Part shown: piece by piece, positions 13,941 through 57,633 of the stretch
Layout of the letters: each line of letters starts with the position of its first letter
Numbering within the stretch: position 1 is the first letter of the stretch
Assembly (NCBI GenBank): GCA_965205235.1
Contig: CBDBGD010000008.1
Coordinates: forward strand, 106,629-170,628
Reading direction: 5' to 3'
DNA from: Dehalococcoidia bacterium
Lineage (GTDB): Bacteria; Chloroflexota; Dehalococcoidia; Lucifugimonadales; UBA1127
Length of the DNA stretch: 64,000 nt
Program-made: the position numbers and the translations under genes
The notes under the pieces: generated by a model
Databases searched by the model: none
The model's input: only the letters and a program-made list of their open reading frames with translations
What the model was told of the DNA's origin: nothing

Positions 13941-16058
<2,118 letters not shown>

Positions 16059-25610: not shown

Positions 25611-25636
25611 GCAGATAACGCAAGCAGGCCGCGTTT

Positions 25637-26768: not shown

Positions 26769-26786
26769 AGGACAGGGAAAGGACAG

Positions 26787-28475: not shown

Positions 28476-28522
28476 GTTCCTTCTCCTTTCGTCAGGGCGG
28501 CTCTAGAGCGCCCGTTGGGAAA

Positions 28523-29188: not shown

Positions 29189-29224
29189 GGGCTCCTCCTC
29201 GCAGTTGTGTTCGTCGTATCGTAT

Positions 29225-29923: not shown

Positions 29924-29971
29924 GCCCTACCTCCTCAACGTTGTGCTGTGTATCGAGCCGGCGGGTCGACC

Positions 29972-31017: not shown

Positions 31018-31035
31018 ACGCCCTCCTCCCGCTCG

Positions 31036-32949: not shown

Positions 32950-33061
32950 GTAACGCCTCCACTCGGGCGGGTACCCTGGGGTGGGGCCATTCTAGGTAGG
33001 CGGTGGGGGTTTGGTCAAGCGTAGGGGGAGTGGGGGGTGAAGGTCGGCGTTCCGACGCACG

Positions 33062-35373: not shown

Positions 35374-35394
35374 GTCGCCCTCGCTTCTCTTCCG

Positions 35395-35530
35395 CCCTTG
35401 TAACGCTGGCTCTTGCTGTGTCGAGGTTTCCTGCTTCCGCAGGAACGACGAAATCGGCCGTCGCTTCCCTTGCGCCCTGCCCTCACCGTGGGCCCGTGGT
35501 TCGACGGGGCTCACCACGAGCGGGTGGTTG
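35395..35530. repeat. Composite intergenic repeat locus 5 (hairpin D and motif B)
   Basis: TTCCTGCttccGCAGGAA around 35429-35446. GTGGGCCCGTGGTTCGACGGGGCTCACCACGAGCGG at 35488-35523 is the near-exact reverse complement of 4415-4450. Confidence 0.8.
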
Positions 35531-36727: not shown

Positions 36728-36754
36728 GATTCCTCCCTCTCCTGTGGGTTGTCG

Positions 36755-38113: not shown

Positions 38114-38119
38114 AACCGC

Positions 38120-39538
38120 CTACTCCACTGCCCCCATGATGGGCGCCGTGGGCCGGCTCGCGGGGAGGAACTGGCCATACCCCGACTGCTGATGGAGCTC
38201 GCCGTCCTTGAGCACCACCTTGCCGCGGAGCAGCGTCATCCAGGGGCGACCCTTCACCGCCCAACCCTCGTAGGGGGTGTAGCCTGCGTTGCTGAGGTGG
38301 TCGACCGCCCTGATGGCGCCTTCGTGGTCGGGGTCGTAGATCAGCAGGTCGGCGTCGGAGCCGGGCCGGATGGTACCCTTGCGAGGGTACAGGCCGAACA
38401 TTCGAGCCGGGTTCTCGCTCAGCACTCGCGCCATCCAGGTGATGGGGAAGTTGCGCTTGACCACGCCTTCGCTGTAGACCAGGCGCACCAGCGTCTCGAC
38501 GGAGGGCGTGCCGAAGGGGATGGGCTTGCCGTCGTCCGGGTGCTTGAAGATGTTCTGCCAGCCCGGAGCGCGCCGGTCGTCGGGGGCCGGGGCGTGGTCG
38601 CTGCCGATGGCCGATACGTAGCCCTGGCGCAGGCCGCTCCACAGACCCTCCTGGTGGAAGCGGTCAGCGGAGCGCAGCGGCGGGCCGATCTTGGCGTAGG
38701 GTCCAAGGCGCTCCATCTCTCCTTCGTCCAGCAGCAGGTAGTGGGGCACGGTCTCCGTCCAGACCACCTGGCCCTGCCGCTGCGCCAGCTTGATGCGCTC
38801 CAGCGCCGTGGCCGTGCTCAGATGGACGATGAAGACGGGGCAGCCCGTCATTGCGCCGATGTTGATGCCCCGGTTCACCGCCTCCTCCTCCACCCAGGGA
38901 GGGCACGTGGCCGAGAAGTCGCGGGGGTGGACCCGCCCCTCCGCCATGGCCTTGTCCTCCAGGTAGTCGATGACGTCACCGTTCTCGGCGTGGAGCTGCA
39001 TGATGCCGCCGTGGGCTGCGACCTGGTCCATGGCCTTGGCGATGTGGGCGTCGGTGCACATGCCGCCGCCCTTCTTGTAGGTCATGAACATCTTGAAGGA
39101 GGCCACTCCCATGCGGATGGCCTCTGCGATGCCGTCGACGATGTAGTCCTGGGGGCCCAGGATGAAGTGCGGCGTGTAGTCCAGGACAGTCTGGGTGCTG
39201 AGCTCCCTCTTCATACGATTGATGGCGTCGGGCAGGGTCTCCCCCGCGCCCCGGTCGTAGTGCATGAAGGGAACGAGCGTGGTGAGGCCGGCCAGGGCGG
39301 CCGCCCGTGGGCCCAGGTCGTGGTCGTCGGCATTGCCGAAGTGGACGTGGCAGTCGAGGGCGCCCGGGAGGACGTACTTCCCCGTGGCGTCGATGGTGAG
39401 GTCGGCGTCGGGCATGAACTCCTGGGGGCCCACGGCGGCGATCTGCTCGCCCTGGATGGCCACGGACGCCTCGAAGCTGTTGGCGGCGGTGACGACCGTG
39501 CCGCCGTGGACTACAACATCGACTTTCTGCGCTGGCAT
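38120..39538 (-). CDS. Cyclic amidohydrolase (D-hydantoinase / dihydropyrimidinase family)
   Basis: 472 aa from ATG 39538 (AAGGAGGAA Shine-Dalgarno). VLPGALDCHVHFG (HxH), VASFKMFMTY (carboxylated-Lys context), GSDHAP. Confidence 0.82.
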   Translation of the reverse strand: MPAQKVDVVVHGGTVVTAANSFEASVAIQGEQIAAVGPQEFMPDADLTIDATGKYVLPGALDCHVHFGNADDHDLGPRAAALAGLTTLVPFMHYDRGAGETLPDAINRMKRELSTQTVLDYTPHFILGPQDYIVDGIAEAIRMGVASFKMFMTYKKGGGMCTDAHIAKAMDQVAAHGGIMQLHAENGDVIDYLEDKAMAEGRVHPRDFSATCPPWVEEEAVNRGINIGAMTGCPVFIVHLSTATALERIKLAQRQGQVVWTETVPHYLLLDEGEMERLGPYAKIGPPLRSADRFHQEGLWSGLRQGYVSAIGSDHAPAPDDRRAPGWQNIFKHPDDGKPIPFGTPSVETLVRLVYSEGVVKRNFPITWMARVLSENPARMFGLYPRKGTIRPGSDADLLIYDPDHEGAIRAVDHLSNAGYTPYEGWAVKGRPWMTLLRGKVVLKDGELHQQSGYGQFLPASRPTAPIMGAVE

Positions 39539-39695
39539 GATTCCTCCTTCGTGCGGGCCTTGAGAAGTTGCGCGGGTATTCCCCTTGAACGTGGAGCGTT
39601 GCCAATGTACCCCTAGCTGCATCAGGCGTCAAGCGAGGGGCGGGGGCGCGAGGGGATGAGGTGGTGTCGAATCAGGGATGCAATGCGGTTTGACT

Positions 39696-40028: not shown

Positions 40029-40092
40029 TTGACTTGGCAACTGGCCAGCGCAATAATCTAGCCAGCATCGCTAGCCAGAAGGAGCAGCAGGT
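40029..40092 (+). promoter_or_regulatory. Putative phd-vapC promoter/operator
   Basis: TTGACT (40029-34), 17 nt, AATAAT (40052-57). Palindrome CTGGCCAG in the spacer. Direct repeat CTAGCCAG x2 (40058-40078). AAGGAG Shine-Dalgarno before ATG 40093. Confidence 0.5.
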
Positions 40093-40353
40093 ATGGCCGA
40101 ATGGTCACTGCAAGACGCCAAGAACCGTTTCAGCGCCGTGGTCAATGCTGCATTGGACGGCGCGCCCCAAACCGTCACGCGCAGAGGCGCCCCCGCCGTC
40201 GTCGTATTGGCGGTAGAGGACTACCAGCGGCTTTGCCAGGCGGAGAAAGCCAACGCACCCACCTTCATCGAACACCTGCTGGCAATTCCCACAGGCGGGC
40301 CGGACGATATGTTTGACCGTCCGCCGTTGAAGCTTCGCGACATCGAGTGGTGA
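40093..40353 (+). CDS. Phd/YefM family antitoxin
   Basis: 86 aa. WSLQDAKNRFSAVVNAALDGAPQTVTRRGAPAVVVLAVEDYQRL is the canonical Phd/YefM N-domain. Confidence 0.85.
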   Translation: MAEWSLQDAKNRFSAVVNAALDGAPQTVTRRGAPAVVVLAVEDYQRLCQAEKANAPTFIEHLLAIPTGGPDDMFDRPPLKLRDIEW

Positions 40354-40769
40354 TGTATCTGCTGGACACCGACGTGATCTCCGCCCTGCGCCGTCCGGAC
40401 CGCCATCCTGGACCAAGGCTGTGGCTAGAGGCTCAGCGGGCATCCGACGTCTACGTCAGCGTCGTCACCCTCGGGGAGCTGGAGCGCGGCATAGCCCGGC
40501 AGGCCCCCCTGAACCCGAACTTTGCTCGTGACCTTGCTCTGTGGGCGGAGCGTATCCTGGCATGGTTTGCGGACCGTGTCCTGCCAGTGGACGCCGCGAC
40601 AGCACGTCGATGGGGCCGACTCTCCGCCTCCCTTGGCAACCGGGAAGCAGACCTGCTCATCGCCGCAACCGCCCTCGAACGCGGCCTCACCGTCGTCACC
40701 CGCAACGTCAAACACTTCGAACCCACGGGGGCGCCCGTGCTCGATCCCTTCGGGAACGAAACCGTCTGA
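40353..40769 (+). CDS. vapC: VapC-type PIN-domain toxin
   Basis: MYLLDTDVISALRR (first acidic residues). Later LLIAATALERGLTVVTRNVKHF. The ATG overlaps the phd stop (TGATG). Confidence 0.85.
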   Translation: MYLLDTDVISALRRPDRHPGPRLWLEAQRASDVYVSVVTLGELERGIARQAPLNPNFARDLALWAERILAWFADRVLPVDAATARRWGRLSASLGNREADLLIAATALERGLTVVTRNVKHFEPTGAPVLDPFGNETV

Positions 40770-44361: not shown

Positions 44362-44599
44362 GCGAGGCCCTTCCGTTCCCTCCCCGTGGTCGTCGAAATG
44401 CGTTCGTTCGATTATAACATCGCCGCCGGACACGGACGGGAAGTGATGCGGCGATGCGGTGGGAGCCCGGCTTTCCGCCAGTCCCGGTCCCGCTATGCGA
44501 GTGGGGCCCCAAGTAGGCTATAATGGCATTGGGCCAGTGCAGTAACGACCGTATCGGACGAGGGTGGTCGCAGCTCCTGAGCCTGTGAGGAGGGACATC

Positions 44600-45250
44600 A
44601 TGCTGAGGTTCGCCGAAGAGTTCATGCTGCTCCTGCTCAACGACGAGGACGGCAGGTTCGCGAACGTGCCGAGCTGGTCAGTGAACTATGCCCTGGCCGG
44701 CAGCGTGCTCATGGACCTGGCGCTCGAGAACCGCATCGACACCGACCTGGAGAACCTGCTGCTCATCGACGCGACACCTGTGGGCGATGGCCTGCTCGAC
44801 CCGACGCTCGCGGAGATCGCCAGGGAGGGGAAGCGGGACGCTCGCTTCTGGGTGGAGCGCACCGCGAATCGCGCCTACGAGATCCGCGAGGAGGCGCTCT
44901 CCCGGCTGGTCTCCGGCGGCATCCTGGAGCGCCGCGACGACCGCTTCCTGTGGGTGTTTCGCTCCCGCCGCTATCCCGCCGTCCAGGGCGAGGCGGAGCG
45001 CGAGGTCAAGCTGCGCATCATGGGCGTGCTGTTCAGCGACGACATTCCCGACCCGCGCGACGTGGTCATCATCTGTCTGGCCGACGCGTGCGGCATCTTC
45101 CGCGGGCTCCTGTCACGGCGGGAGCTCGACAGGGCGTCCGCCCGCATCGAGCAGGTGCGCAAGCTGGACCTCATCGGCCAGGCCATGACCCAGGCCATCC
45201 GGGACATCGAGCTGTCCGTGGCCGTCTCCATCCAGTCGTACATCCACTAG
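44600..45250 (+). CDS. GPP34/GOLPH3 family protein
   Basis: 216 aa from ATG 44600 (GAGGAGGG Shine-Dalgarno). FAEEFMLLLLNDEDGRF and the later ...RLVSGGILERRDDRF are characteristic. Confidence 0.75.
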   Translation: MLRFAEEFMLLLLNDEDGRFANVPSWSVNYALAGSVLMDLALENRIDTDLENLLLIDATPVGDGLLDPTLAEIAREGKRDARFWVERTANRAYEIREEALSRLVSGGILERRDDRFLWVFRSRRYPAVQGEAEREVKLRIMGVLFSDDIPDPRDVVIICLADACGIFRGLLSRRELDRASARIEQVRKLDLIGQAMTQAIRDIELSVAVSIQSYIH

Positions 45251-45313
45251 CGGCGCGCCGCCTGGGCGCGCGTGGAACATCGACGGCCTGCGGCCCGGGA
45301 GGGAAGGGGCGAC

Positions 45314-46003
45314 GTGAAGACAACGATCGAGTACGAACCGGCCTATGCCATGCTGACGGTGGACCTGGAGCCGGGCGAAGCCATCAAGGCCGAGCCGGGT
45401 GCGATGGTCCTCCAGCACGGCGTCGAGATGCAGACGGGCATGGGAGGGGGCGGCCTGCTCGGCGGGTTCAAGAGGATGCTGGGCGGCGAGTCCTTCTTCG
45501 TCAACACCTTCACTGCGGAGAGCGGCGGCGGGCTGGTCAGCCTTGCCCCGAGCTCACCCGGAGACATAGGCTCCTTCAACCTGCAGCCGGGAATGGACCT
45601 CTTTGTCCAGTCGGGCTCCTTCCTGGCATGCACCGAGAACGTCCAGACCGACGCGAAGTTCCAGGGCATGAAGGGCTTTTTCAGCGGGGAGAGCCTGTTC
45701 TTCATCCGGGTCTTCTCCACGGAGGGCGTGGGGACGGTCTTCTACAACTCCTACGGCGCGATCAAGAAGGTTGAGGTTGTGCCGGGGATGGAGCTTGTCG
45801 TCGACACGGGTCACCTGGTCGCGTTCGGCGAAGGCGTCGAGTACTCCATCGGCAAGGTGGGCGGCATCCGGTCGCTCATCGCCGGCGGAGAGGGCCTGGT
45901 GATGAAGTTCCGGGGCACGGGCGAGGTGTGGATTCAGACCCGGAACCTCGCGTCCCTGGCCGACAAGATCATCCCGTTCCTGCCCAAGACCAGCGGCAAC
46001 TAG
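45314..46003 (+). CDS. AIM24/TIGR00266 (DUF124) family protein
   Basis: YEPAYAMLTVDLEPGEAIKAEPGAMV...GESFFVNTFTA...GESLFFIRV...GEGLVMKFRGTGEVWIQT is the repeated beta-helix pattern of this family. The start is GTG 45314 or GTG 45272. Confidence 0.75.
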   Translation: MKTTIEYEPAYAMLTVDLEPGEAIKAEPGAMVLQHGVEMQTGMGGGGLLGGFKRMLGGESFFVNTFTAESGGGLVSLAPSSPGDIGSFNLQPGMDLFVQSGSFLACTENVQTDAKFQGMKGFFSGESLFFIRVFSTEGVGTVFYNSYGAIKKVEVVPGMELVVDTGHLVAFGEGVEYSIGKVGGIRSLIAGGEGLVMKFRGTGEVWIQTRNLASLADKIIPFLPKTSGN

Positions 46004-46093
46004 CGTTCGGCGCAATCCGCTGGCGCCCTTCGCCCGAAACGAGATGCTGCCGTTGCTGGACCGCCGCGTGGATTCCCCCGTGGAAGCAGCGCC

Positions 46094-46720
46094 ATGATGC
46101 CTGCGACTGACCCACGCTGCGACTACAAGGACGTGGTGCGTCGCGGCTACGATAACTGCGCGGTGGCGTACCATGAATCTCGAAGCGCCGAGTCCGGGGC
46201 CGAGCTCCAGGCGCTGACCGCGAGACTGGTCGACGGCGATGCGGTGCTCGACATTGGCTGCGGCGCCGGAGTTCCCATCGCCAAGTCGCTGGCCTATCGC
46301 TACCGTGTCACGGGTGTGGACATCTCGCCCGAGATGGTCCGACGAGCGCGGCGAAATGCGCCGACGGCCACCTTCCTATGTGTGGATGTCACGTCCGTCC
46401 GCCTGCCCCCATCGAGCTTCGACGCAGCGGTCGCGCTCTACTCCGTGTTTCACCTCCCCAGGGAGGAGCACCCGCGTCTGTTCGAGAAAGTCCACGGGTG
46501 GCTCAAGCCGGGCGGCTACCTGCTATGCACGCTGAGCCATCACAGCGAGGAGGGCTACACGGAGCAGGACTTCTACGGGGCGACGATGTACTGGAGCAAC
46601 TACAGCCTCGATGAGTACGTGGACATACTGGCCGAGGTGGGTTTCGAGCTGCTCGAGACGCGATCGGTGGGTTGCGAAAGGGGGGAAGACTATCCCCTCG
46701 TGCTCGCTCGCAGGCGCTGA
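46094..46720 (+). CDS. Class I SAM-dependent methyltransferase
   Basis: 208 aa. Motif I VLDIGCGAGVP. Acidic loop VTGVDISPEM. LKPGGYLL. Confidence 0.85.
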   Translation: MMPATDPRCDYKDVVRRGYDNCAVAYHESRSAESGAELQALTARLVDGDAVLDIGCGAGVPIAKSLAYRYRVTGVDISPEMVRRARRNAPTATFLCVDVTSVRLPPSSFDAAVALYSVFHLPREEHPRLFEKVHGWLKPGGYLLCTLSHHSEEGYTEQDFYGATMYWSNYSLDEYVDILAEVGFELLETRSVGCERGEDYPLVLARRR

Positions 46721-46739
46721 GGCGACGCCGGCAGCCCCG

Positions 46740-47615
46740 CTACCCGCCGCCCCGCCCCGCGCGCACCCGCACCTCCACCTCCAGCCGGGTGCTGCCGCCG
46801 CCCAGGAAGATGCCCCGCACGGGGGCCACGTCGTGGTAGTCGCGGCCCACGCCCACCCGAATGTGCCGTTCGCCGGCCAGACAGCGGTTCGTCGGGTCGA
46901 AGCCCACCCAGCCCAGACCGGGTAGGCGACACTCGACCCACGCGTGGGAGGCGTACTGCATCTCGGCCTCGCCGTTCTGGCCCTCGACGTAGAGGTAGCC
47001 CGAGACGTAGCGTGCGGGGACGTGCCAGGAGCGGGCAATCGCGATCATCACGTGGGCGTAGTCCTGGCAGACGCCCTTCCTCGATTGCAAGGTCTCCTCG
47101 ATCGGCGACGCGGCCGACGTGCTGCCCGGCACGTATTCGAAGCTGTCGTGGAGCGTGTCCGACAGGCGGAGCAGGGACTCCAGTGGGTCGTCGCCGGCCT
47201 TGATGTCCCGCTCGTCGACGAAGGCTGCCAGGGCGGGCGAGGGCCGCGCGTAGGCGCTGGGGCGGATGAAGTCCCAGTAGTCGAACGCGTCCCGCCACGA
47301 GAGGAGCTCCTCCCAGGCGCCGGCGCCCAGGGAGTCCGGGAGCCTCGCGGGCTTCGCGCGCTCCACCGTGGAACGGGTCACGAGCTCCAACGATGCGTGC
47401 TCGCCGTGGACGTTCAGGACGTGCTTGGTGTTGCCGAAGACGTCCGTCTCGCTGTTGAACGCCGCCGGAGGGTCCGTGGCCAGGGCGAACGACAGGAGGC
47501 GTTGTCCGGCGTCGCTGCGGGGCTTCAGGCAGAGGGACAGCATGCAGTGCCGTATAGGCGAGGAGTAGGTGTACCGGGAGACGTGCTCGACATGGTAGAG
47601 CACCGGCTCGCTCAT
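46740..47615 (-). CDS. Transglutaminase-like cysteine protease family protein (Bact_transglu_N plus core)
   Basis: 291 aa. N-domain YHVEHVSRYTYSSPIRHCMLSLCLKPR. Core KGVCQDYAHVMIAIARSWHVPARYVSGY...SHAWVE...GFDPTN (Cys-His-Asp). Confidence 0.88.
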   Translation of the reverse strand: MSEPVLYHVEHVSRYTYSSPIRHCMLSLCLKPRSDAGQRLLSFALATDPPAAFNSETDVFGNTKHVLNVHGEHASLELVTRSTVERAKPARLPDSLGAGAWEELLSWRDAFDYWDFIRPSAYARPSPALAAFVDERDIKAGDDPLESLLRLSDTLHDSFEYVPGSTSAASPIEETLQSRKGVCQDYAHVMIAIARSWHVPARYVSGYLYVEGQNGEAEMQYASHAWVECRLPGLGWVGFDPTNRCLAGERHIRVGVGRDYHDVAPVRGIFLGGGSTRLEVEVRVRAGRGGG

Positions 47616-47619
47616 GCAG

Positions 47620-48588
47620 CTAGCGGGTGGGAAAGTCTTCCACGGGGTAGTCGAAGTAGGCGGCGGTCACCAGGTGGTGCAGGTCCCGGCAGTACTCTCG
47701 CACCTGCAGCAGCAGCTCTGGGCGGTCCTCCCTGTCGGGCCACTCGTAGTGGATCAGCGCTGCCGTGCGGCCCGCCAGCCGCTGAGCGGCGCCGCTGGAC
47801 CTCGCGTCCGGCCCCCGGCCGATGGTGCGCAGGTCTGACGCCGTCCGGTCCAGCGATCTGCACAGCGAGTCCGGCAGCAGGGAGTCCGTGGCCAGCAGGT
47901 CCAGCACCTGGTCCGGCCGCACCTCCACGCTGTACGTGCGGTTGTACACCTCGAAGGCGTGGTAGATGCGCAGCAGGCTCGTCCAGTCGGCCTCCGACGA
48001 CTCCCCCGCCTCCTCATCTGCGGCCAGCTGCGCCAGGAGCAGCGACGACGAGATCTGGGCACGCTCGATGAAGCGGCCAAGCTGCGTGAAGCGCCAACCG
48101 TCGTCCCGGTACGTGGTGGCCGCGGCGACGCCGGAGAAGGTGTTCATCTCCGCCTCGGTCTCCGCGTAGAAGCTCTCGGGCGAAGTCCGCCAGATGTCCT
48201 GTATGGTGAGCCTCTGGATTTTGAGGTAGGCCAGGTTCAGGCTGGTCCAGAGCCCGCTGCTGATGCAGTGGCGCATCTGGCGGGCGTTTTCCCGCCCCAG
48301 GGCGAAGCAACTCCACACCGAGTCCGGGTTCGTGCGCTCGAAGGTCAGGTCGTCGGCGAGGGTGTACGAGTCGGCGAGCGTGAACTCTTCGCCGCCGAGG
48401 AGGTCGCGGCTGCCTCCGGGGGGTTCCCGGCCCAGGGTGTCGTAGATGCGGAGCCAGCCGGTGTGAATCTCGCGGACGGGCCGATCGACCAAGGCTTCCA
48501 CCTGCAGGCGCAGGAGGCGGCACAGGAACTCCGCCCGCTCCAGGTAGCGCCCCATCCAGTAGAGTCCCTGTGCGCTGCGAGCAAGCAT
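47620..48588 (-). CDS. Alpha-E domain protein (DUF403)
   Basis: 322 aa. Opening MLARSAQGLYWMGRYLERAE is the family hallmark. Confidence 0.85.
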   Translation of the reverse strand: MLARSAQGLYWMGRYLERAEFLCRLLRLQVEALVDRPVREIHTGWLRIYDTLGREPPGGSRDLLGGEEFTLADSYTLADDLTFERTNPDSVWSCFALGRENARQMRHCISSGLWTSLNLAYLKIQRLTIQDIWRTSPESFYAETEAEMNTFSGVAAATTYRDDGWRFTQLGRFIERAQISSSLLLAQLAADEEAGESSEADWTSLLRIYHAFEVYNRTYSVEVRPDQVLDLLATDSLLPDSLCRSLDRTASDLRTIGRGPDARSSGAAQRLAGRTAALIHYEWPDREDRPELLLQVREYCRDLHHLVTAAYFDYPVEDFPTR

Positions 48589-48589
48589 G

Positions 48590-50023
48590 TCAGTCCCCCA
48601 GCACCCAGAGGTCCTTGCCGCCGCCGCCCTGGCTGGAGTTCACGACCAGGCTGCCCCGCCGCAGTGCCACGCGGCAGAACGCCCCCGGCACCATGCGGGT
48701 CTGCTGCCCTTGCAGCACGAAAGGCCGCAGGTCCACGTGCCTCGGCTCGAAGGCGCCCTCGACCAGGCATGGCGCCCGGGAGAGGGCGAGCACCGGCTGC
48801 GAGATGAAGTCGGCGGGGTTCGCGCGCAGCTGCACGGCGTACTCGGCCCGCTCCTCCCTGGTGGAGTGCGGGCCGATGATCATGCCGTATCCCCCGGACT
48901 CGCCCACCCGCTTCACCACCAGGTCCTGCATGTTGTCCAGGGTGTACTCCAGACCCTCAGGATTGCGGCAGAGGTAGGTCTCGACGTTTGCCAGAATGGC
49001 CTCTTCGCCCATGTAGTAGCGAATCATATCGGGCACGTAGGCGTAGACGCTCTTGTCGTCGGCAACGCCCGTACCCGGCGCGTTGACCAGGGCCACGTTG
49101 CCCAGCTTGTAGGCGTGGATGAGGCCGGGCACACCCAAGAGCGAGTCTGGTCGGAACACCAGCGGGTCCAGGAAGTCATCGTCCACGCGGCGGTAGATCA
49201 CGTCCACGCGGCGCAGTCCCGTGGTGGTCCGCATGTAGACGAAACCGTCGCTGACCAGCAGATCGCGCCCCTCCACCAGCTCCGCGCCGAGCTCGCGGGC
49301 CAGGAACATGTGCTCGTAGAAGGCCGAGTTGAAGACGCCGGGGGTCAGCAGCGCGATGGACGGCTCCGACCGCCCGCTGGGCGCCAGCTCCCGCAGCGTC
49401 TCGAGCAGCAGCAGACCGTACCGCTCCACCTCCTGGACGCGGGAGCTCCTGTACAGGCGAGGCAGGCTGGCCTTCACTGCCTTGCGATTGGCGATCATGT
49501 AGGAGACGCCGGAGGGCACGCGCAGGTTGTCCTCCAGCACGCGAAAGCCGTCGTTGGTGCGGACCAGGTCGGTGCCACAGATCGCAGCCCAGGTGCCGTG
49601 GGGCGCGGAGACGCCCCGCATCTCCAGGCGGTACTGGGGGCAGCCCCGCACCACGTCGACGGGGATGACGCCGTCGTTGATGATGCGGGCCGGGCCGTAC
49701 ACGTCTTCCAGGAAGAGGTTGAGCGCCCGAACGCGCTGCGTGAGACCCTTCTCCAGATGCCGCCACTCGGCGCCCGACAGCACGCGCGGGAGGCAGTCGA
49801 TGGGGATGATGCGCTCTTCGCCTTCCTCGTCGCCGTAGACGGTGAAGGAGATGCCCTCGTTGGAGAAGGAGCGGGTGACCCGTTCCTGGATGCTGCCGAG
49901 CTCCTCGACGGAGAGCTCGGTCAGGGTCTCGTGGATGGGGCGCCAGTGGTCCCTGGGCGTGCCGTCCGACAGGAACATCTCGTCATAGATGGTGGGGTCG
50001 AGGTTGTAGCTGTCGAAGTTCAC
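48590..50023 (-). CDS. Circularly permuted type-2 ATP-grasp protein
   Basis: 477 aa with a GTG start. [32 protein letters not shown] and [12 protein letters not shown] are typical of the CP_ATPgrasp_2 family. Confidence 0.85.
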
Positions 50024-50027
50024 GGCG

Positions 50028-52253
50028 CTATTCGTCGTCCTGGGAGCCGTCGCCCGGCGGCGAAGCTTCCACAGCCTCCGCCTCTTCTTCGTCCTCCTCC
50101 ACTTCTCCGAAGAGCGTTCGGGGCGGCACCAGTGGCAGCTCCACGGTCATTTCCGTGAACTGTCCCGCCTCCGATTCGACGTGAATGGTGCCGCCGTGCT
50201 TCCGCACGATGTCGCTGGACATGGCAAGGCCCAGGCCCGTGCCCTTGTTGGTGGGCTTGGTGGTGAAGAACGGGTTGAAGATCTTGTCGATGGCGTCCAG
50301 CGGGATCCCGTTCCCGTTGTCCCTGATCCTGACCTCCACGTGGTCCTCCGACCGCTTGGTGGCCAGCACCAGCGTGGGCATGTAGCCTGCGTCGCCCGCC
50401 TCCAGGCCCTGGCGCCGCTTCTCGTCAGTGGCGTAGCACGCGTTGCTGACCATGTTGAGGAAGACGCGGCCCATCTCCTGCGGAATCACCTGGAGGTTGC
50501 CCATCTGCGGGTCCAGGTCGTGCTCCAGCGTCAGGTTGAAGTCCGGGTCCGTGGCGCGGGCGCTGTGGTAGGCCAGGCGTGCGTGCTCCTCCAAGAGGTT
50601 GTTGATGTCCGTGGCCTGGACGTCTCCGGCGTCCCGCCCCATCTGCAGCATGTCGTGGACGATGCGGTTGGCCCGCTCACCGTGGGACCGGATGCGGCCC
50701 AGATTGTCCTTCAAGTCCCCGAAGATGTCGTCGATCAGCCCAGTCTGCTCTTCAGTCAGGGTTACGCCCTCTTCCTGGAGGACCTCCTTTACCTCGGTCA
50801 CAAGCTCCTGGGAGACCTCTGAGAAGTTGTTGATGAAGTTCAACGGGTTTCGAATCTCGTGGGCAACGCCCGCGGTCAGCTCACCCAGCGCCGCCAGCTT
50901 TTCCCGCATGACTATCTGGTCCTGCGCCTGCTGTAGGTCCGCCAGCACAACCTCCAGCTGCTCGTTCTTCCCCTGCAGCTCGTCCGCCAGCTTCTCCACC
51001 AGGTTGAGGCGTTGGACCTCCAGAGCGTGGCGGCGGAAGACCTCCAGGGCGGCGGCCATCTCCGCCACCTCGTCGCGGCCTTCCATCGTCACCGTGGCCT
51101 CCAGGTCGCCTCCCGCCATGCGCCGCATCCAGTCCGACAGGAGCTTGAGGCGACGCACCAGCATGCGCCCGACGAAGAGCCAGGCGATGAGCAGAGCGCC
51201 CGCAACGCTGATGGCGCTGATGGCGAGAAGCAGTGTGCGACCGGTGAAGATCGCATCGCTGGAGGCTTGGGTCGCCGCCTGGGCGCTGGCCCCGGCAACC
51301 TCCACAAGCCCGTTCACCTCTGCCACCAGGTTGTTGGCGATGTTGCGATTGCCCTCCACCAGGCCCTGCTGGGTCAGCGTCAGCGCCAGTCGGTCGGCGA
51401 TGAGATCGAAGCCGTTCTCATCTCCCGTGCCCAGGTCGGACAGCTCAGCGAAGATGGGCTTCACCTGGGCCTGCAGCGGCGACCCCTCGAGGGCCGACAG
51501 GTTGCGGTCGATGCGGCTGGTGGACGCCTCGAACCGCTCCCGCAGAGGCTCGATAAGCGACAACTCGGAAATCGCGAAGGAGTTCGCCAGCAGCTCCATG
51601 GCGATGTTGCCCTCCACCTGCAGCAAGGCCAGGTGGCGGTAGTGCCCGAACTCCTCCTCCGAGAAGTGCTCGGCGCGCGCGTCCGGAGGCTCCCCGAGCG
51701 TGTGATAGCCCGTTATCGTGTAGAAGAGTTGGTCGTCGATGGCCGGAACGATGATGCCGTCCAAGCGCGTGCGCAGCCTCGCCAGCTGGGACCCCAGCGC
51801 TTCGGTCTCGGAGGTCAGGACGAAGGACTGGAGCGTGGCTGACTTGATCGCCTCGATGTTCTCGATGAGACCCCCCGCCATGTCGAGGATGGTGGCAAAG
51901 TTCTCGTCCTCCGTGCTCCCCACGATCAGGCGGTCCAGCTGCTCCGAGAAAGCCGTGAAGTCCTCGTCGATGCTGAGGACGACGCTGTTGAACTCCTCCT
52001 CGTTCGCGGCGGTGGTCAGGCGAGGGGCGGCAGCGGAGAGAATACCGGTCAGCCGTGCGACCTCGAAGGAGGCGGAGATGGCCGGGATGCTGCCCTCGTT
52101 CACGCGACTCTGCACTTCGCCCACCCGGTTGAAAGAGAGCCACCCTACAAGGCTGGCGCACATGGTCAGCGCCACAGCGCCCCAGATCGCCAGGTAGAGC
52201 TGGGTGGAGACGCGCGAGGCGCTGCCGGGTATGCGTTTCAGCGTCTGTATCAC
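50028..52253 (-). CDS. Sensor histidine kinase (2 TM, large extracytoplasmic domain, HAMP, HisKA, HATPase)
   Basis: 741 aa. TM1 [21 protein letters not shown]2 [23 protein letters not shown]-box [13 protein letters not shown]-box [10 protein letters not shown]1 DNGNGIP, G2 GTGLGLAMS. Acidic C-terminal tail. Confidence 0.9.
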
Positions 52254-53551
52254 CGCCGCACCTCCTCCAGGCTGTCGATGGAGTAGTAGCCGGCGTCGGC
52301 GCCAATCACGGTCAGGAAGACCTGGTCGGACCCCTGGTTGTCCTCGGGCCCGAAGAGGAGCTCGAAGCCGTCGATGTCCGTGAGGCTGGTGCCCTGCAGG
52401 GTCTCCAGGAAGCAGTCCCTGTCCACGTCCCGACCGCAGAGCTCCAGCGCGGCGATGGTGAGCCGGCCCGCCATGTAGCCTTCCAGCGACACGAAGCTTG
52501 GCGCGGCGCCGGAGCCGGCGGCCTGCAGTGCGTCGAGGTAGGAGGCGACGATGGGCACGGAGTCGTCCGTTGGGAACGGCACCACCTGGGTGACGAAGAC
52601 GCCCTCGCCGCCGGGGCCGTCATCGGTCGCGGGGCCCAGCTCCGCAGCCAGCGCGTTGCTGCCCACGAAGGAGACGGTCATAAAGATTGGGTCCATACCC
52701 GTGTAGCGCGCCCACTTGATGAGCTCGGCGACCGGCTGGTAGGCGCCTATGATGACCACCGCCTGGGGCGAACCCTGCGCCAGGTCCAGCAGCGCCGCCT
52801 TCACCGCCAGCGTGTTGCGGGTGTACAGGCCCACTGCGGCCGGCGTCATACCCCGGCGCGCCAGGGCGTCCCTGGTCCCGGTGTAGCCTGCGCGGCCGTA
52901 GGAGTCGTCCTGGTACATGATGCCGATGCGCTCAATGCCCAGGCGCTCCGTCAGCTGGGCCACCATCTCCTCGGTCTCCTGGTTGTAGGAGGCCCGCAGG
53001 TTGATCACCGTGCTCCACTTGGGGTCGCGCAGAATGGCCGCGCCGGTGAACGGCGCAATGTAGGGCACTCCACGGGCGTCGGCGACGGGGACCGCGGAGC
53101 GGGACGTGGGTGTGCCGACGGCCCCGATCAGCGCGAAGACCGAGTCCTGCTCGATGAGCTGGAGGGTGTTGGAAATGGCGGCCTCCGGCTCGTATGCGTC
53201 GTCCAGGGACAGGAGGTCCAGCAGCCGTCCGTGGACGCCTCCGGCCTGGTTCACCTCGAAGAAGGCCGCCTCGATGCCCCGCCTCATGTCCTTGCCCAAC
53301 TCCTGGGCCGGGCCGGTGAAGGCCGCCGACTGTCCGAAAAGGATGGCGTTGTCCGTGATGCCCGGCGGGGGGCCTGCAGGCGTGGATGCCGTTGTGGGTG
53401 TGGCGACGATTACCGGGTCAACGACCTCGGCTTCTTCGGTAACGCCCAGGAAGAACCATGCTGCCAGGCTGAAAATGATGGTGAGGGAGACACCCCCGCC
53501 GATCCCCAGCGCAAACAGTATGTCGGACTGTATTCGAGGAATGCCCCTCAC
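52250..53551 (-). CDS. Membrane-anchored periplasmic-binding-protein (Leu/Ile/Val-binding type, Peripla_BP_6)
   Basis: 433 aa. N-terminal TM anchor, then ILFGQSAAFTGPAQELGKDMRRGIEAAFFEVNQAGGVHGR..LLSLDDAYEP. 4-nt overlaps with both neighbouring genes. Confidence 0.85.
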   Translation of the reverse strand: MRGIPRIQSDILFALGIGGGVSLTIIFSLAAWFFLGVTEEAEVVDPVIVATPTTASTPAGPPPGITDNAILFGQSAAFTGPAQELGKDMRRGIEAAFFEVNQAGGVHGRLLDLLSLDDAYEPEAAISNTLQLIEQDSVFALIGAVGTPTSRSAVPVADARGVPYIAPFTGAAILRDPKWSTVINLRASYNQETEEMVAQLTERLGIERIGIMYQDDSYGRAGYTGTRDALARRGMTPAAVGLYTRNTLAVKAALLDLAQGSPQAVVIIGAYQPVAELIKWARYTGMDPIFMTVSFVGSNALAAELGPATDDGPGGEGVFVTQVVPFPTDDSVPIVASYLDALQAAGSGAAPSFVSLEGYMAGRLTIAALELCGRDVDRDCFLETLQGTSLTDIDGFELLFGPEDNQGSDQVFLTVIGADAGYYSIDSLEEVRR

Positions 53552-53967
53552 TCAACCCTGCGCTTTACCAGAATCAGATGGTTCTTGCCACCCTCTCGGC
53601 TGTACCGCATGTCGTCCATCATGGTGCGCACCAGGTGGACGCCAAGCCCGCCTATCGACCTGTCGCCCAGGGCGGCGGTCACATCCGGGACGGGCGCGTT
53701 CTCCAGCGGGTTGAAGGGCTTGCCGTCGTCGGTGATCTCGATGGTCAGCGACTCCGCCTCGGACGTCATCTCGATCTCCACGACGTGTTCGCCGTTGTCG
53801 TGTCCGTGGTTCACCACGTTGAGCCACAGCTCCTCAAGGACCAGGTTCACCTGGAACGTGAGGTCGTTGGGCCATTCCTGCTCCCGGGCAAAGTCCTCCA
53901 CGGATGCAGCCAGACCCTCCAGCTCCTCCACCCGGGTTGGAACGGTCAGGGACAGCTTTGCACTCAC
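53548..53967 (-). CDS. RsbW/SpoIIAB-like anti-sigma-type serine kinase (HATPase_c_2)
   Basis: About 139 aa from GTG 53967 (GTGA overlap with the upstream stop). LVLEELWLNVVNHGH and GGLGVHLVRTMMDDM. Confidence 0.8.
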   Translation of the reverse strand: MSAKLSLTVPTRVEELEGLAASVEDFAREQEWPNDLTFQVNLVLEELWLNVVNHGHDNGEHVVEIEMTSEAESLTIEITDDGKPFNPLENAPVPDVTAALGDRSIGGLGVHLVRTMMDDMRYSREGGKNHLILVKRRVE

Positions 53968-55169
53968 TGGGCGTCCCCGCTGCAGTGGAGTGCCAGGCAC
54001 GTGATGTCGTCCGACTGGGGGGTCTCTCCGGCGAAGGCGTTGACAGCCTCGAAGACCACCTCCGTGGCCGTCTCGGGGTCCTTCGGCGGACTGGCGTGCA
54101 GCTGCTCGCGCAGCGTGTCCAGACCGAACTCCTCCTCTGCGTGGTTCATAGCCTCGGTCACACCGTCCGTATAGAAGAGGACCGTGTCTCCGGGAGCTAG
54201 GGTCACCGTATCCTGCTTGTACTCCAGGTCAGGCACAATCCCCAGCGCTATGCCGCCCGTGAGCGGGAGGAGCTCGGAGCTCCCGTCGGCGTGGACGATG
54301 AGGGGGCTGTTGTGGCCGCCGTTGGCGTAGGACAGCTCCCTGGTCGCGGGGTCGTAGATGGCGTAGAGGACGGTGACGAACATCCCTTCCCTGTTGTCCT
54401 CCAGGAGCAGCTCGTTCACCTCCCGGAGCACGTCTCCGGGCGGGCCCACGCCGATGGCGGAGCCCTTCAGCAGGGTGCGGCTGGACATCATGAAGAGGGC
54501 CGCGGGCACACCCTTGCCGGAGACGTCTGCCACGGCAAGGCCAATGCGTCCATCGCTCAGGGAGAGGACGTCGAAGAAGTCGCCGCCCACCTCGCGTGCG
54601 GCCTGCATCTTGCCGTGCACGGCGTAGCCGTTGCTGCGGGGGAACTGGGTGGGAAGAATGGACTGCTGCATTCCCCTGGCAACATCCAACTCGTTCTGGA
54701 GCGAGACCAGCTTGTCGCGGAACTGCAGCGCCTCGCGCCACTCGGCCATGTGGCGCAGCGTCCGGTCGATGGTCACCTGCAGGTCCTCGAAGTCGACGGG
54801 CTTGGTGACGAAGTCGAACGCGCCCCGGTTCATGGCCGTGCGGATGTTCTTCATGTCGCCGTAAGCGGAGATGATGACTGATCGGATGTTGGGGTCCACC
54901 TTGGGGATCTGGTCCAGGAGCGTGAGGCCGTCCATCTGCGGCATGTTGATGTCGGAGAGCACCATGTCGATCTCGTCGTCTTCGTTCAGCTTCTCCAGGG
55001 CCTCCACGCCGTTGTGCGCGAAGACGAAGGTGTAGCGCCCCGCGCGGATGCTCCGCCGCATGCGTTGGAGCACCAGCGGCTCCAGGTCGGGCTCATCATC
55101 GACGACGAGGATCTTGTATGGCTCTTGCATCGTTGTCATCCGGTACGGCTTCCTCCTTGCGTTTGTCAT
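53964..55169 (-). CDS. Response-regulator receiver fused to PP2C/SpoIIE phosphatase (RsbU-like)
   Basis: REC domain: KILVVDDEPDL...DMVLSDINMPQMDGL. PP2C domain: GGDFFDV, VADVSGKGVPAALFM, ANGGHNSP, YTDGVTEA, DDITCLAL. The start may be ATG 55139 or 55130 rather than 55169. Confidence 0.88.
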   Translation of the reverse strand: MTNARRKPYRMTTMQEPYKILVVDDEPDLEPLVLQRMRRSIRAGRYTFVFAHNGVEALEKLNEDDEIDMVLSDINMPQMDGLTLLDQIPKVDPNIRSVIISAYGDMKNIRTAMNRGAFDFVTKPVDFEDLQVTIDRTLRHMAEWREALQFRDKLVSLQNELDVARGMQQSILPTQFPRSNGYAVHGKMQAAREVGGDFFDVLSLSDGRIGLAVADVSGKGVPAALFMMSSRTLLKGSAIGVGPPGDVLREVNELLLEDNREGMFVTVLYAIYDPATRELSYANGGHNSPLIVHADGSSELLPLTGGIALGIVPDLEYKQDTVTLAPGDTVLFYTDGVTEAMNHAEEEFGLDTLREQLHASPPKDPETATEVVFEAVNAFAGETPQSDDITCLALHCSGDAQ

Positions 55170-55221
55170 TCGGTTCCGTCCAAGGAGTGCTCGGCTGCAG
55201 GGCTTGGCAGCCCGGCGGCGC

Positions 55222-55560
55222 CTATCTGTTGAACGCGGCCAGGGCCTCCGCCTGCGAGGTGTGCACCGTGATGATCTTGTCGAATCCGCTGATCTGGAAG
55301 ACCTCTTGGATCGAGTTCGAGAGGGAGCACACGGCGAACTTGGTGTTCTTACCCTGCAGCGTCTTCGCCATAAGCAGAATCACGCGCAGCCCCGCACTAC
55401 TGATATACGACAGCTTCTCCATGTCCAGGATGACGCCGCTCTCGCTGTCGTTGAGAGACTCCTCCAGAGCGGTCTGAAACTCGCGGGCGTTGGTGCCGTC
55501 CACGCGCCCTTCCGTCTTTGCGATGAGGGTTTCTCCGTGTCGCTCGGCCGTAATTTCCAT
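55222..55560 (-). CDS. STAS-domain anti-sigma-factor antagonist (RsbV/SpoIIAA-like)
   Basis: 112 aa. VILDMEKLSYISSAGLRVILL contains the conserved phosphorylatable-Ser context. Confidence 0.85.
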   Translation of the reverse strand: MEITAERHGETLIAKTEGRVDGTNAREFQTALEESLNDSESGVILDMEKLSYISSAGLRVILLMAKTLQGKNTKFAVCSLSNSIQEVFQISGFDKIITVHTSQAEALAAFNR

Positions 55561-55749
55561 TGATTGCGTCTCCTTACCAGTAGTATGGCTGCCCAGGTGG
55601 TCCTGCTCGTCCCGCCCTTGGAAGTTTGTCCCTTATTGCCGCAAGGAGTATATGGCTAGGCCATAGTTGGCGTCCAGTTTAGCCGCGTTCCCCACCCCTT
55701 TCAATACCGGACACCCCGCAAGCCTCAATTGCCACAACAATTTTACGCC

Positions 55750-57402
55750 CTAGATCGCCAGTATGCGCTTCGCAACCTCCCTTGCGCCGTCCAGGTCCTC
55801 GACGAAGTTCTCCTCGGGCACGTGCCGCAGCACGTTCAGCGCGCTGAGCGTGGTGGCGGGGAGGCCCGTCAGCCCCATCACGATGCAGTTCACGTCCTCC
55901 GCCATGGCCCCGTCGATGAGTTGCTCCATGACCAGGGCGGCGCTGTCGTCCATGTAGACGGTGTTGGAGAAGTCCAGGATCACAATCTCATGGTCGCGTA
56001 TGTCCACGCTGATGGTGTTGATCATCTTGGCAGCGGACGCCACGGAGAAGTTCCCTCGCAGCGCAACAAGCCCAACCCGTGCGGAGAAGATGTCCGCATC
56101 GTCGCCGTCGGCGCTGTTGGTGCCCAGAAATGCCTGGTCCAGCAGCGGCGTGGAGACCACGCTGTCCAGCTCCAAGCGCTCGAACTGCCGCGCGCTGGTC
56201 ACCATCGCGGCGATCATGCCGACGACGACCGCGGTGAGCAGGTCCAGGAACACGGTGAGCACCAGGGTCAGCAGCATGACCATGAGGTGCTCCCGCTGGA
56301 CGTGGAGGACCCGCGTGACGAAGCGCCAGTCGATCGTGTCCCAGCCCACCTTGATCAGGATGCCGGCGAGGACGGCGTTCGGGATGGAGGCCACCTGCTC
56401 CCCCAGGACGACGACCATGGCAACCAGGACGCCCACGGCGATGATGCCGGACACGATGGTCCATCCCCCGGCAACGATGTTCGCCACGGTGCTCGGCGTG
56501 GCCCCGGCGCCCGGCAGCCCGCCGATCAGCCCCGTGACCATGTTCCCGAGGCCCTGGCCCAGCAGCTCCTTGTCGGGGTTATGGCGCGCCCGCGTGTGCG
56601 AGTCCGCCACCAGAGAGGTGAGGAGCGTGTCGACGGAGCTTACCAGCGCGATGACCAGCGCGGGCTCGATTGCGCGGAGCAGGAAGTCGCCGGAGAAGTC
56701 CGGCACCTGCAGCGTCGGCCACGTCGTCGACACCGTGCCGATTACCGGCGCGTCGGTGAGCCAGACGACACCCAGGAACGTCCCCGCGACCAGCGCCACC
56801 AGCGTGTACGGCATGTACCGGCTCACCCGGCTCGGCCACAGCGCCGCCACCGCCAGCGTGATCGCGGCGATGCCCAGCGCGTCGATGTTGAAGTCCTCGA
56901 TGAGGTCCGGCCACGATTTGATGGCGCCAACCGGCCCGCCCGCGGCGATGTTCCCGCCCATGAAGGGGAGGCTCTGCACCAGAATGATGATGATCCCGAC
57001 GCCGGACATGAACCCGGATATGACGGAGTAGGGCGTGTACGCGACGAAGCGCCCGATTCTCATGACGCTCAGGAGGATCTGGATCAGCCCCGCCATCATG
57101 ACGATGGTGAACGCTTCGACCAGGGAGTCCGCACGGCTCGTGACGATGACCGCCATCGCCACGGTCATGGAGCCCGTGGGGCCGGAGATCTGCGACCGGG
57201 TGCCCCCGAAGACGGCTGCGAAAAAGCCGACTGCGATGGCCCCGTAGATGCCCGCAAGCGGCCCCAGGCCGGAGGCTATGCCGAACGCCAGCGCCACCGG
57301 CAGTCCCACCACGGCCGCGGTGACGCCGCCGAAGACGTCCCCCCTCAGGGTCTGTAGGTCGTAGTCCTCGGGGGGCCGCCAACCGAGGATGCGGCGGAGC
57401 AT
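55750..57402 (-). CDS. SulP family anion transporter with C-terminal STAS domain
   Basis: 550 aa from ATG 57402. LRGDVFGGVTAAVVGLPVALAFGIASG, many TM helices, and C-terminal EIVILDFSNTVYMDDSAALVMEQL. Confidence 0.88.
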   Translation of the reverse strand: MLRRILGWRPPEDYDLQTLRGDVFGGVTAAVVGLPVALAFGIASGLGPLAGIYGAIAVGFFAAVFGGTRSQISGPTGSMTVAMAVIVTSRADSLVEAFTIVMMAGLIQILLSVMRIGRFVAYTPYSVISGFMSGVGIIIILVQSLPFMGGNIAAGGPVGAIKSWPDLIEDFNIDALGIAAITLAVAALWPSRVSRYMPYTLVALVAGTFLGVVWLTDAPVIGTVSTTWPTLQVPDFSGDFLLRAIEPALVIALVSSVDTLLTSLVADSHTRARHNPDKELLGQGLGNMVTGLIGGLPGAGATPSTVANIVAGGWTIVSGIIAVGVLVAMVVVLGEQVASIPNAVLAGILIKVGWDTIDWRFVTRVLHVQREHLMVMLLTLVLTVFLDLLTAVVVGMIAAMVTSARQFERLELDSVVSTPLLDQAFLGTNSADGDDADIFSARVGLVALRGNFSVASAAKMINTISVDIRDHEIVILDFSNTVYMDDSAALVMEQLIDGAMAEDVNCIVMGLTGLPATTLSALNVLRHVPEENFVEDLDGAREVAKRILAI

Positions 57403-57633
57403 ACCAGGCGTTTCCCGCCTGACGCGGCTGGAGAATGCGTCCAAGAACCCCTCCACGGTTGCGTGTCTTCCCTGGTCGGCGGCTTTTTCGCCGCGCGGAA
57501 GCCTGCGGAACGGCCTCGTGCCCCCGCATTCTACGGGACGATGGCGTGATTGTCCAAGTGCCCGCCGATTTGGGACCATCGTGGTGTATCCTGAAGGGGC
57601 AGAGAACGGATGAACGCGCTGGAGGGGCATGTC

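Follow-up and report, generated by a model that had tools for sequence, protein, structure and literature searches.

In the SpoIIE/AA/AB-sigmaF and RsbU/V/W-sigmaB systems of Bacillus subtilis and the RsbK-RsbY-RsbV-RsbW-sigmaB system of Bacillus cereus, a trio of STAS-domain protein, RsbW-type kinase and PP2C phosphatase is encoded in one operon with its sigma factor, and the B. cereus phosphatase, too, is a receiver-PP2C fusion (REC-PP2C) driven by a histidine kinase (HK). A system formed by a circularly permuted (CP) ATP-grasp enzyme, an Alpha-E protein and a transglutaminase (TGase), here called the triad, was reportedly given its primary description by Iyer et al. in 2009. The triad is predicted to be a peptide-ligation or peptide-removal system (PMC3495828) and, as the 'Anbu operon', was without an experimentally defined function in papers of 2012 to 2021 (PMC5666114, PMC6376114). 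Here we analyse a stretch of 64,000 nt of contig CBDBGD010000008.1 of a Dehalococcoidia bacterium (the 64-kb window, whose positions serve as coordinates throughout), in which a string of eight minus-strand genes (55560..46740) joins a sensory partner-switch cassette to such a triad. The reading we favour, at roughly even confidence, is that the string is likely one operon of two evolutionary units that repeatedly associate because both would serve nitrogen (ammonium) acquisition. The statement best supported by the comparisons below is that the cassette is probably a nitrogen-related signalling pathway and the triad one of its functional partners.

Read from the window sequence with the help of Pfam, the string consists of eight nearly gapless open reading frames (ORFs); all eight genes that the first-pass annotation had placed there are present on the minus strand, and Pfam bore out the domain identity given to each. 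The five upstream genes (55560-50028) are the cassette, encoding a STAS protein, a REC-PP2C, an RsbW-type kinase, a LivK-type binding protein and a TorS-like HK, and the three downstream genes (50023-46740) are the triad of CP-ATP-grasp, Alpha-E and transglutaminase.

The STAS-only protein (55222..55560; 112 aa; PF01740, E 6e-19) is the predicted phosphorylatable switch protein. It scores 80 bits against the NCBIfam anti-sigma factor antagonist superfamily model TIGR00377 (cut-off 53) and has the phosphorylatable serine at the start of helix 2 that marks partner-switch members; this is Ser55, within a YISSAGLR motif retained in 32 of 36 orthologues. The response-regulator phosphatase (53964..55169; SpoIIE type), which probably starts at 55139 and then has 391 aa, combines a receiver domain (PF00072, E 2.5e-24) with a SpoIIE/PP2C domain (PF07228, E 1e-54). 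The receiver residues D24/D25, D73 and K123 are all there, as are the PP2C motifs GGDFFD, ADVSGKG, YTDGV and SDDIT with the metal-binding aspartates; its best NCBIfam model is Pseudomonas RssB, with a score under the cut-off. The serine kinase of RsbW/SpoIIAB type (53548..53967; 139 aa; PF13581, HATPase_c_2, E 3e-27) has an intact N box (ELWLNVVNHG), G1 box (DDGKPF) and G2 box (GGLGV), and matches the SpoIIAB and RsbW equivalog models weakly, under their cut-offs. An upstream GTG at 54000 was considered as its start and rejected; the gene begins at 53967.

The remaining two cassette genes encode the predicted sensory input. The binding protein (52250..53551; Peripla_BP_6, LivK type; PF13458, E 4e-52), a predicted co-sensor of the kinase, has a single N-terminal transmembrane (TM) segment (residues 11-35) and after it a linker rich in Pro and Thr, and for this reason it is taken to be membrane-anchored, as the first-pass annotation had proposed. 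Its nearest solved structure is 4kv7_A, an uncharacterised 'probable Leu/Ile/Val-binding protein' (E 4e-66). The sensor HK (50028..52253) consists, by Pfam, of a TM segment, an extracytoplasmic domain of ~300 aa, a second TM segment (the two lying at 21-39 and about 340-366), HAMP, HisKA (His465) and HATPase_c. The TorS model TIGR02956 covers its residues 17-439 (model positions 4-431) at 164 bits, far under the cut-off of 676, and PF21689 (TorS_sensor_domain) is precomputed for many orthologues, but as a faint match only. TorS senses through a binding protein, and the 4-nt overlap between the binding-protein and HK genes is retained in four related loci (L001, L002, L003 and L166 of the surveys described below); together with the TorS-model alignment, this supports the binding protein as the co-sensor of the kinase. 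His465 of the HK and D73 of the REC-PP2C, the only response regulator in the operon, are encoded together as a two-component pair, and the pair is retained in 35 of 38 related loci. Look-ups of the exact sequences of the window HK and of P0123 gave no database record.

From these domain families and conserved residues we infer the following signalling steps. An extracytoplasmic ligand, probably amino-acid-like, would be captured by the LivK-type binding protein, which would modulate the TorS-like HK by the logic of TorT/TorS; the HK would phosphorylate Asp73 of the REC-PP2C, and this phosphatase and the RsbW-type kinase, working in opposition, would determine whether Ser55 of the STAS protein is phosphorylated. 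A chain running from binding protein through HK and REC-PP2C to STAS and RsbW had been put forward in the first-pass annotation, and it is supported by the presence of all catalytic and phospho-acceptor residues, by the TorS-like sensor half and by the co-travelling of the five genes. Both the order of phosphotransfer and the nitrogen-related role argued for below are what we infer from sequence.

The triad begins with the CP-ATP-grasp amidoligase (48590..50023; 477 aa; PF14403, CP_ATPgrasp_2, E 2e-156; also PF04174), which matches PDB 3n6x_A, a 'putative glutathionylspermidine synthase', at E 3e-165 and is 60-94% identical to cassette-adjoining copies elsewhere. The Alpha-E protein that follows (47620..48588; 322 aa; PF04168, E 6.5e-64) belongs to a distinct and large subclade, with upwards of 120 database clusters that reach at least 67% identity. 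Scored against the window protein, the Alpha-E proteins of 11 of 12 cassette-linked loci reach 298-642 bits and that of the twelfth, L039, reaches 177 bits, where generic triads give 85-177 bits. No solved homologue of Alpha-E was found, and an AlphaFold2 model built from a 20-sequence alignment had a mean pLDDT of 55.8, too poor for a fold search. The last gene encodes a transglutaminase-like Cys-His-Asp protein (46740..47615; 291 aa; PF08379, Bact_transglu_N, and PF01841, Transglut_core) in which the catalytic Cys183 (GVCQDY), His224 and Asp240 are intact. This order of ATP-grasp, Alpha-E and transglutaminase is also that of 67 of 80 metagenome triad loci. None of the three proteins has a signal peptide or TM segment. 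As to the proteasome beta-like fourth gene, Anbu, none lies next to the TGase gene, and Pfam scans of the other window ORFs gave no proteasome-family match. PADLOC matched none of the eight proteins of the string, which makes a defence system unlikely.

The junctions between the eight genes are tight. The PP2C/RsbW, RsbW/binding-protein and binding-protein/HK junctions are each GTGA overlaps (4 nt in the last case), the HK and CP-ATP-grasp genes are 4 nt apart (CGCC), and gaps of 1 nt and 4 nt precede the Alpha-E and TGase genes, respectively. These values agree with the first-pass annotation, save that it had read the RsbW/binding-protein overlap as ATGA. Its gap of 52 nt between the STAS and PP2C genes is correct for the ORF that opens at 55169, but the ATG at 55139 is the more likely start, because an AAGGAGG precedes it by 9 nt and the orthologues have 388-393 aa, and the gap is therefore likely 82 nt.

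Upstream of the STAS gene lies a leader and probable promoter region of 189 nt with lower G+C (55561..55749, minus strand). It holds the sole two sigma-70-like matches within 46000-56200, namely TTGAAA-17-TAAACT at 55704-55676, retained in L001 (a relative with 87% HK identity), and TGGACG-18-TATACT at 55676-55647. The AAGGAGA Shine-Dalgarno sequence before the STAS gene is invariant in five orthologues, and Rfam gave no riboswitch or leader RNA match upstream of that gene. A sigma-54-like TGGCA...TTGC in the leader was rejected, as its spacing is wrong and it is not retained in L001. Pattern scans, by which all operon features were judged, found two terminator-like matches inside genes, with 3.6 expected from shuffled sequences, and no inverted repeat reaching 14 nt in the 9.2-kb string. 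In these scans the eight genes are co-directional, meet at short or overlapping junctions, follow one promoter-like region and enclose no internal terminator. The simplest reading is that the string is one transcription unit in which the eight genes would be co-transcribed; the first-pass annotation had argued this from the spacing, to which the lone promoter-like region and the lack of hairpins now add.

Close homologues of the HK are numerous. To compare the string with its relatives, we scanned with an HK alignment, taking one genome per species, and obtained 38 loci with a full-length orthologue; genes in these loci were called as six-frame ORFs searched by homology to the eight window proteins, and the 32 loci in which 6 kb or more of flanking sequence is available on each side are referred to as fully flanked. 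All five cassette genes are in the fetched locus for 32 of the 38 species. By the titles and taxonomy of their records, the loci span about seven phyla (Chloroflexota, Actinomycetota, Acidobacteriota, Gemmatimonadota, Pseudomonadota, Latescibacterota and Bdellovibrionota), and the cassette appears to be horizontally mobile; several of its carriers bear names or isolate codes that we take to be those of sponge-symbiont bins. In 11 of the 32 fully flanked loci the triad, or at least its ATP-grasp and Alpha-E genes, is found no more than 10 kb from the cassette. For a triad present in one or two copies in a genome of 3-6 Mb, our rough estimate of the chance expectation is about 1% or less, and because of this difference we do not regard the linkage as chance: it is well beyond chance but facultative.

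The adjacency is seen in four phyla and takes four forms. The cassette precedes the triad on the same strand in the window, L001, L003, L004, L008, L009, L021 and L166; the triad comes first, again on the same strand, in L022, L023 and L032; the two are convergent in L016 and L019, and divergent in L039. L003, with 63% HK identity, has the same eight-gene order as the window between entirely different flanks. When the match lists for HK and Alpha-E were compared, at least 14 of 120 shared a contig, a loose lower bound since L001 and L003 were missed. A Mantel correlation of about 0.9 between HK distances and those of CP-ATP-grasp or Alpha-E was not used as evidence of coupling; it is not discriminating, because it equals the value for HK and REC-PP2C and because shared species history would give the same.

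The triad was also surveyed in its own right. A metagenome scan with a CP-ATP-grasp alignment returned 80 triad loci, nearly all of them generic (55-61% identity). The single close relative among them, L084 (78%), has an orthologous STAS gene directly after its TGase gene and no other cassette gene. In addition, five members of the Alpha-E subclade, chosen without regard to the HK, were looked up (L164-L168), and an ammonium transporter (Amt) gene adjoins four of the five. The order is cassette, ATP-grasp, Amt, Alpha-E, TGase in L166; ATP-grasp, Amt, Alpha-E, TGase in L167 and L168; and amt, glnK, ATP-grasp, Alpha-E, all on one strand (6804-10969), in L165. An Amt gene separates the CP-ATP-grasp and Alpha-E genes of six loci that represent several lineages (L008, 13809-15206; L009, 15090-16766; L016, 13240-14829; L166, 8488-9873; L167, 8513-9949; L168, 8441-9835), without an adjoining PII gene, and this insertion is absent from all 80 loci of the metagenome triad scan. 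The insertion suggests that the triad may handle ammonium or an amine delivered by Amt. L165 has no transglutaminase gene, and because its amt and glnK genes are followed by the other two genes alone, the ATP-grasp/Alpha-E pair appears to be the core, which appears able to ride on a canonical amtB-glnK operon. The window triad is a member of a subclade that is usually interleaved with or preceded by Amt and is joined to the cassette in a minority of cases.

A survey of cassette neighbours, in which the flanking ORFs of 39 loci were clustered and then checked with Pfam and phmmer, gave a similar picture. After the triad, Amt is the next most recurrent neighbour, found near the cassette in 11 of the 32 fully flanked loci, nine of which form one close clade, and the glutamine synthetase adenylyltransferase GlnE is near it in four (L029, L030, L033 and L034). 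At least one of triad, Amt and GlnE is present in 20 of the 32; phmmer found no PII gene in the cassette loci. Where the cassette is split, its RsbW/STAS half remains with nitrogen genes. In L034 (3592-7460, minus strand), GlnE, RsbW and STAS genes follow one another with a 42-nt gap and then a 4-nt overlap, divergent from a REC-PP2C, binding-protein and HK string; in L039, RsbW and STAS genes lead into Amt, ATP-grasp, Alpha-E and TGase genes, and the input genes are oriented divergently from this string. A second STAS gene stands ahead of the ATP-grasp, Amt and Alpha-E genes of L016. Published work places the triad in a nitrogen context as well: under nitrogen limitation in Burkholderia cenocepacia it is strongly dependent on NtrC/sigma-54 (PMC5491218), in Pseudomonas putida it is induced on nitrate compared with ammonium (PMC8050072, Table 2), and in marine metagenomes its domains co-vary with those of urea metabolism (PMC3597751).

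Two further genes in L009 touch on the sensory side. A second Peripla_BP_6 gene (12196-13785) overlaps the HK stop codon and precedes the CP-ATP-grasp, Amt, Alpha-E and TGase genes, and a gene for a Na+/H+ exchanger with CBS domains is inserted between STAS and REC-PP2C. The position of this second binding-protein gene, between HK and CP-ATP-grasp, is what one might expect of a feedback loop in which the triad makes or degrades an exported peptide or amide that the LivK-type binding protein senses, so that the triad would act upstream of the switch. The window binding protein is of an amino-acid/amide-binding family, and the predicted activity of the triad is amide-bond ligation or cleavage (PMC3495828, PMC6376114). 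Against such a loop, the triad proteins have neither signal peptides nor TM segments, no exporter is conserved in the loci, and most cassettes have no triad nearby; we consider it the least probable of the alternatives, and a very improbable one.

A number of observations weigh against a nitrogen-related pathway with the triad as partner. The loci are not phylogenetically independent, as the pairs window/L001, L003/L004 and L022/L023 are close, and their taxon labels come from metagenome bins. Twelve of the 32 fully flanked loci have none of triad, Amt and GlnE, nor do they have any neighbour in common; when 86 flanking ORFs of the 17 cassette loci without these three, some on truncated contigs, were surveyed with Pfam, again no shared neighbour emerged. 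Amt, GlnE, GlnA and PII genes are all missing from the window itself, and its binding protein is not close to UrtA or AmiC. The linkage of HK and STAS/PP2C/RsbW genes to the triad, which the first-pass annotation had pointed out, recurs in the 11 loci and four arrangements given above, but it is facultative: the cassette adjoins one of five close Alpha-E relatives (L166) and none of 79 generic triads. L002, with 73% HK identity, has the cassette without a triad, next to carbonic anhydrase and SulP genes instead, and L164, whose Alpha-E is 80% identical, has SulP, carbonic anhydrase and triad on one strand without the cassette.

That these close relatives keep the two units apart could mean that cassette and triad are unrelated and merely juxtaposed in the window, their tight spacing reflecting genome compaction. 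The distance from HK to CP-ATP-grasp, which ranges from 4 to about 1700 nt among the loci, and the rearrangement-prone look of the SulP, carbonic anhydrase, cassette and triad region would agree with this. However, such an account has to face a triad within 10 kb in about a third of fully flanked, species-level loci (11/32, compared with the rough expectation of about 1% or less), four arrangements in four phyla, one of them involving the generic-type triad of L039, the retention of the gene order between different flanks in L003, and the parallel enrichment of Amt and GlnE beside the cassette, and we regard it as very unlikely.

The partner switch raises the question of a sigma factor. None is encoded in the 64-kb window, as judged by phmmer searches with RpoE, SigB, SigF and RpoD and by Pfam scans of the other ORFs, which agrees with the first-pass annotation, and no sigma gene recurs in the 38 related loci, where the only two seen are those of L009, an ECF gene at a distance of 9 kb, and of L025, an RpoD-like gene. 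A classical anti-sigma switch, with the RsbW-type protein sequestering a sigma factor whose gene lies in another part of the genome and the triad merely sharing the transcript or belonging to the regulon, without coupling at the protein level, would nevertheless be compatible with an unlinked target, as established for HsbR/HsbA and CrsR/CrsA with RpoS (PMC6482189). The STAS protein, RsbW-type kinase and PP2C carry all canonical switch residues and match anti-sigma antagonist and anti-sigma models (RsbW and SpoIIAB under their cut-offs), and the triad is missing from most cassette loci. Yet no sigma gene is found in the window or conserved in the 38 loci, the spread of the cassette among about seven phyla, whose sigma repertoires differ, sits uneasily with a lineage-specific target, and the RsbW and STAS genes share an operon with GlnE in L034 and with the Amt-triad in L039, with solo STAS genes beside triads in L084 and L016. 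We view the classical switch as a real but minority possibility.

As to the output of the favoured nitrogen-related pathway, two forms come into question, each tentative and to about the same degree. In the first, the STAS protein or the freed RsbW-type kinase would act directly on nitrogen-assimilation proteins (triad, Amt, GlnE); in the second, the target would be an unlinked sigma factor. Direct control of the triad by the switch, as proposed in the first-pass annotation, is possible, and the data fit the triad as output and a shared nitrogen/ammonium neighbourhood that includes Amt and GlnE equally well. The placement of RsbW and STAS genes in L034, L039, L084 and L016, together with the missing sigma gene, leads us to lean slightly towards a non-sigma output at the protein level. 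AmtB and GlnE are two classical targets of PII, and since PII genes are absent from the loci, a PII-like role for the STAS protein is suggested, by analogy only. In the fullest version, which we offer as a rather unlikely one, STAS/RsbW would be a PII-like, phosphorylation-toggled ammonium controller that binds the Amt-coupled ATP-grasp/Alpha-E machine, and elsewhere Amt or GlnE, and reports extracellular nitrogen compounds; the triad would then be an ATP-dependent system capturing or releasing ammonia at the transporter, and the circuit would have spread horizontally among bacteria that are not related to one another.

Other genes recur near the string. Directly upstream of the leader lies a gene for a SulP-family transporter with a C-terminal STAS domain (55750..57630, minus strand; PF00916 and PF01740), given here as context only; SulP-STAS transporters recur beside the cassette or the triad in L001, L002 (12453-14968), L031 and L164 (5883-8468), accompanied in L002 and L164 by carbonic anhydrase. 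ATP-grasp enzymes often activate bicarbonate, and a bicarbonate link to the triad through SulP and carbonic anhydrase is conceivable; the recurrence may equally be lineage-specific synteny. At the other end, a methyltransferase-domain gene (46094-46720, plus strand) is convergent with the TGase gene, 19 nt away. Genes for bacterial GPP34 (Golgi phosphoprotein 3-like) proteins are near the cassette in six loci, namely the window (span 44546-46717, with AIM24 and methyltransferase neighbours), L001 (15583-17715), L002 (5451-6098), L013, L029 (between a STAS gene and GlnE) and L031. The window is also rich in amide-cleaving enzymes, with five Amidohydro_1/2 proteins, a formamidase/acetamidase and a DAO oxidase (5811-8657, 11409-12632, 34249-39628), a richness that fits an organic-nitrogen-scavenging lifestyle and thus the nitrogen theme.

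Farther from the string, the window holds a complete 16S rRNA gene (14553-16062, minus strand; 1462 bits) and no 23S or 5S match within its 64 kb, which points to an unlinked rRNA arrangement and is in keeping with the Chloroflexota/Dehalococcoidia affinity of the best genome matches. Four tandem paralogues of isochorismatase-family hydrolases (27795-31035, minus strand) adjoin a prolyl-oligopeptidase-type S9 peptidase (31039-32991) on one side and, on the other, a peptide ABC transporter region (21410-27701) that includes two SBP_bac_5 genes in tandem. A PIN-domain protein (40317-40766, plus strand), preceded by a small overlapping ORF (40075-40350), probably forms a toxin-antitoxin pair with it. 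A minus-strand ORF of 1494 codons at 1-4482 was rejected as a giant gene: it has no Pfam match, its GC1 is 0.87, and it is an antisense shadow of plus-strand genes, an artefact of high G+C. The plus-strand genes beneath it include a partial peptidase-like gene that runs off the start of the window.

What appears to be undescribed is the coupling of these parts and, more widely, the link between the cassette and ammonium genes, the parts themselves being of known kinds. The first-pass annotation knew of no account of switch-triad coupling, and our literature search likewise found no description linking the triad, or Amt and GlnE, to a partner switch. Partner-switch cassettes without a sigma factor are common orphans and the triad is widespread, and the neighbourhood data make both testable. 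From the recurrent cassette neighbours, the Amt inside the triad and the persistence of RsbW/STAS with nitrogen genes follow predictions of a nitrogen-limitation phenotype, of ammonium as a candidate amine substrate of the amidoligase and of specific interaction partners of the STAS protein. If the switch does act directly, it would constitute a second post-translational route of nitrogen control, independent of PII, and one operating in uncultured bacteria, several of them apparently sponge-associated, where ammonium exchange may matter for symbiosis.

Set beside the known systems, the string combines features of several. It differs from the Bacillus sigmaB and sigmaF operons in that no sigma gene is in the window operon or its 38 relatives, and its HK is non-hybrid and predicted to depend on a binding protein. 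In this last respect it resembles TorT/TorS and LuxP/LuxQ, where the binding-protein gene is likewise translationally coupled to the kinase gene, and some 420 residues of the kinase align to the TorS model. The binding protein here, however, is a Peripla_BP_6 protein of LivK type and not a homologue of TorT or LuxP, and in contrast to TorS the kinase ends after HATPase_c, without receiver and Hpt domains, and its match to the TorS model is far under the cut-off (164 compared with 676 bits). With PII (GlnB/GlnK) the STAS protein would share, by analogy only, the character of a covalently toggled small protein genomically coupled to Amt and GlnE, but it is unrelated to PII in sequence and fold and no PII gene accompanies the cassette.

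The triad has the three families, the gene order and the intact TGase Cys-His-Asp residues of the 'Anbu operon' system, which Pseudomonas and Burkholderia induce when nitrogen is limiting (PMC5491218, PMC8050072, PMC5666114, PMC6376114); it differs in that it has no Anbu gene and that its Alpha-E protein is of the distinct, typically Amt-interleaved subclade. For a partner switch that governs an enzyme, a close parallel is HenR/All4160 of Anabaena, also a REC-PP2C phosphatase with a STAS protein, where the unphosphorylated STAS protein reportedly regulates a biosynthetic enzyme directly, and not a sigma factor (bioRxiv 10.64898/2026.04.08.717354). The target there is a heterocyst polysaccharide pathway and the kinases are unlinked, with no binding-protein/HK pair in cis, and direct enzyme control in our string is hypothetical.

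There is also a close likeness to HsbR-HsbA of Pseudomonas aeruginosa and CrsR-CrsA of Shewanella oneidensis, in which, as here, a receiver-controlled PP2C opposes an RsbW-type kinase on a STAS protein, the input comes from a histidine kinase and the target is encoded away from the switch (PMC6482189). The outputs of HsbA depend on its own phosphorylation state, which provides a precedent for a non-sigma output (PMC6482189). In contrast to HsbR and CrsR, where the kinase is the third domain of the response regulator, the kinase here is encoded by a separate gene of 139 aa, and a dedicated binding protein and a TorS-like kinase are part of the same operon. Whereas the neighbours of those switches are flagellar and biofilm genes, those of the cassette described here are genes of nitrogen assimilation.

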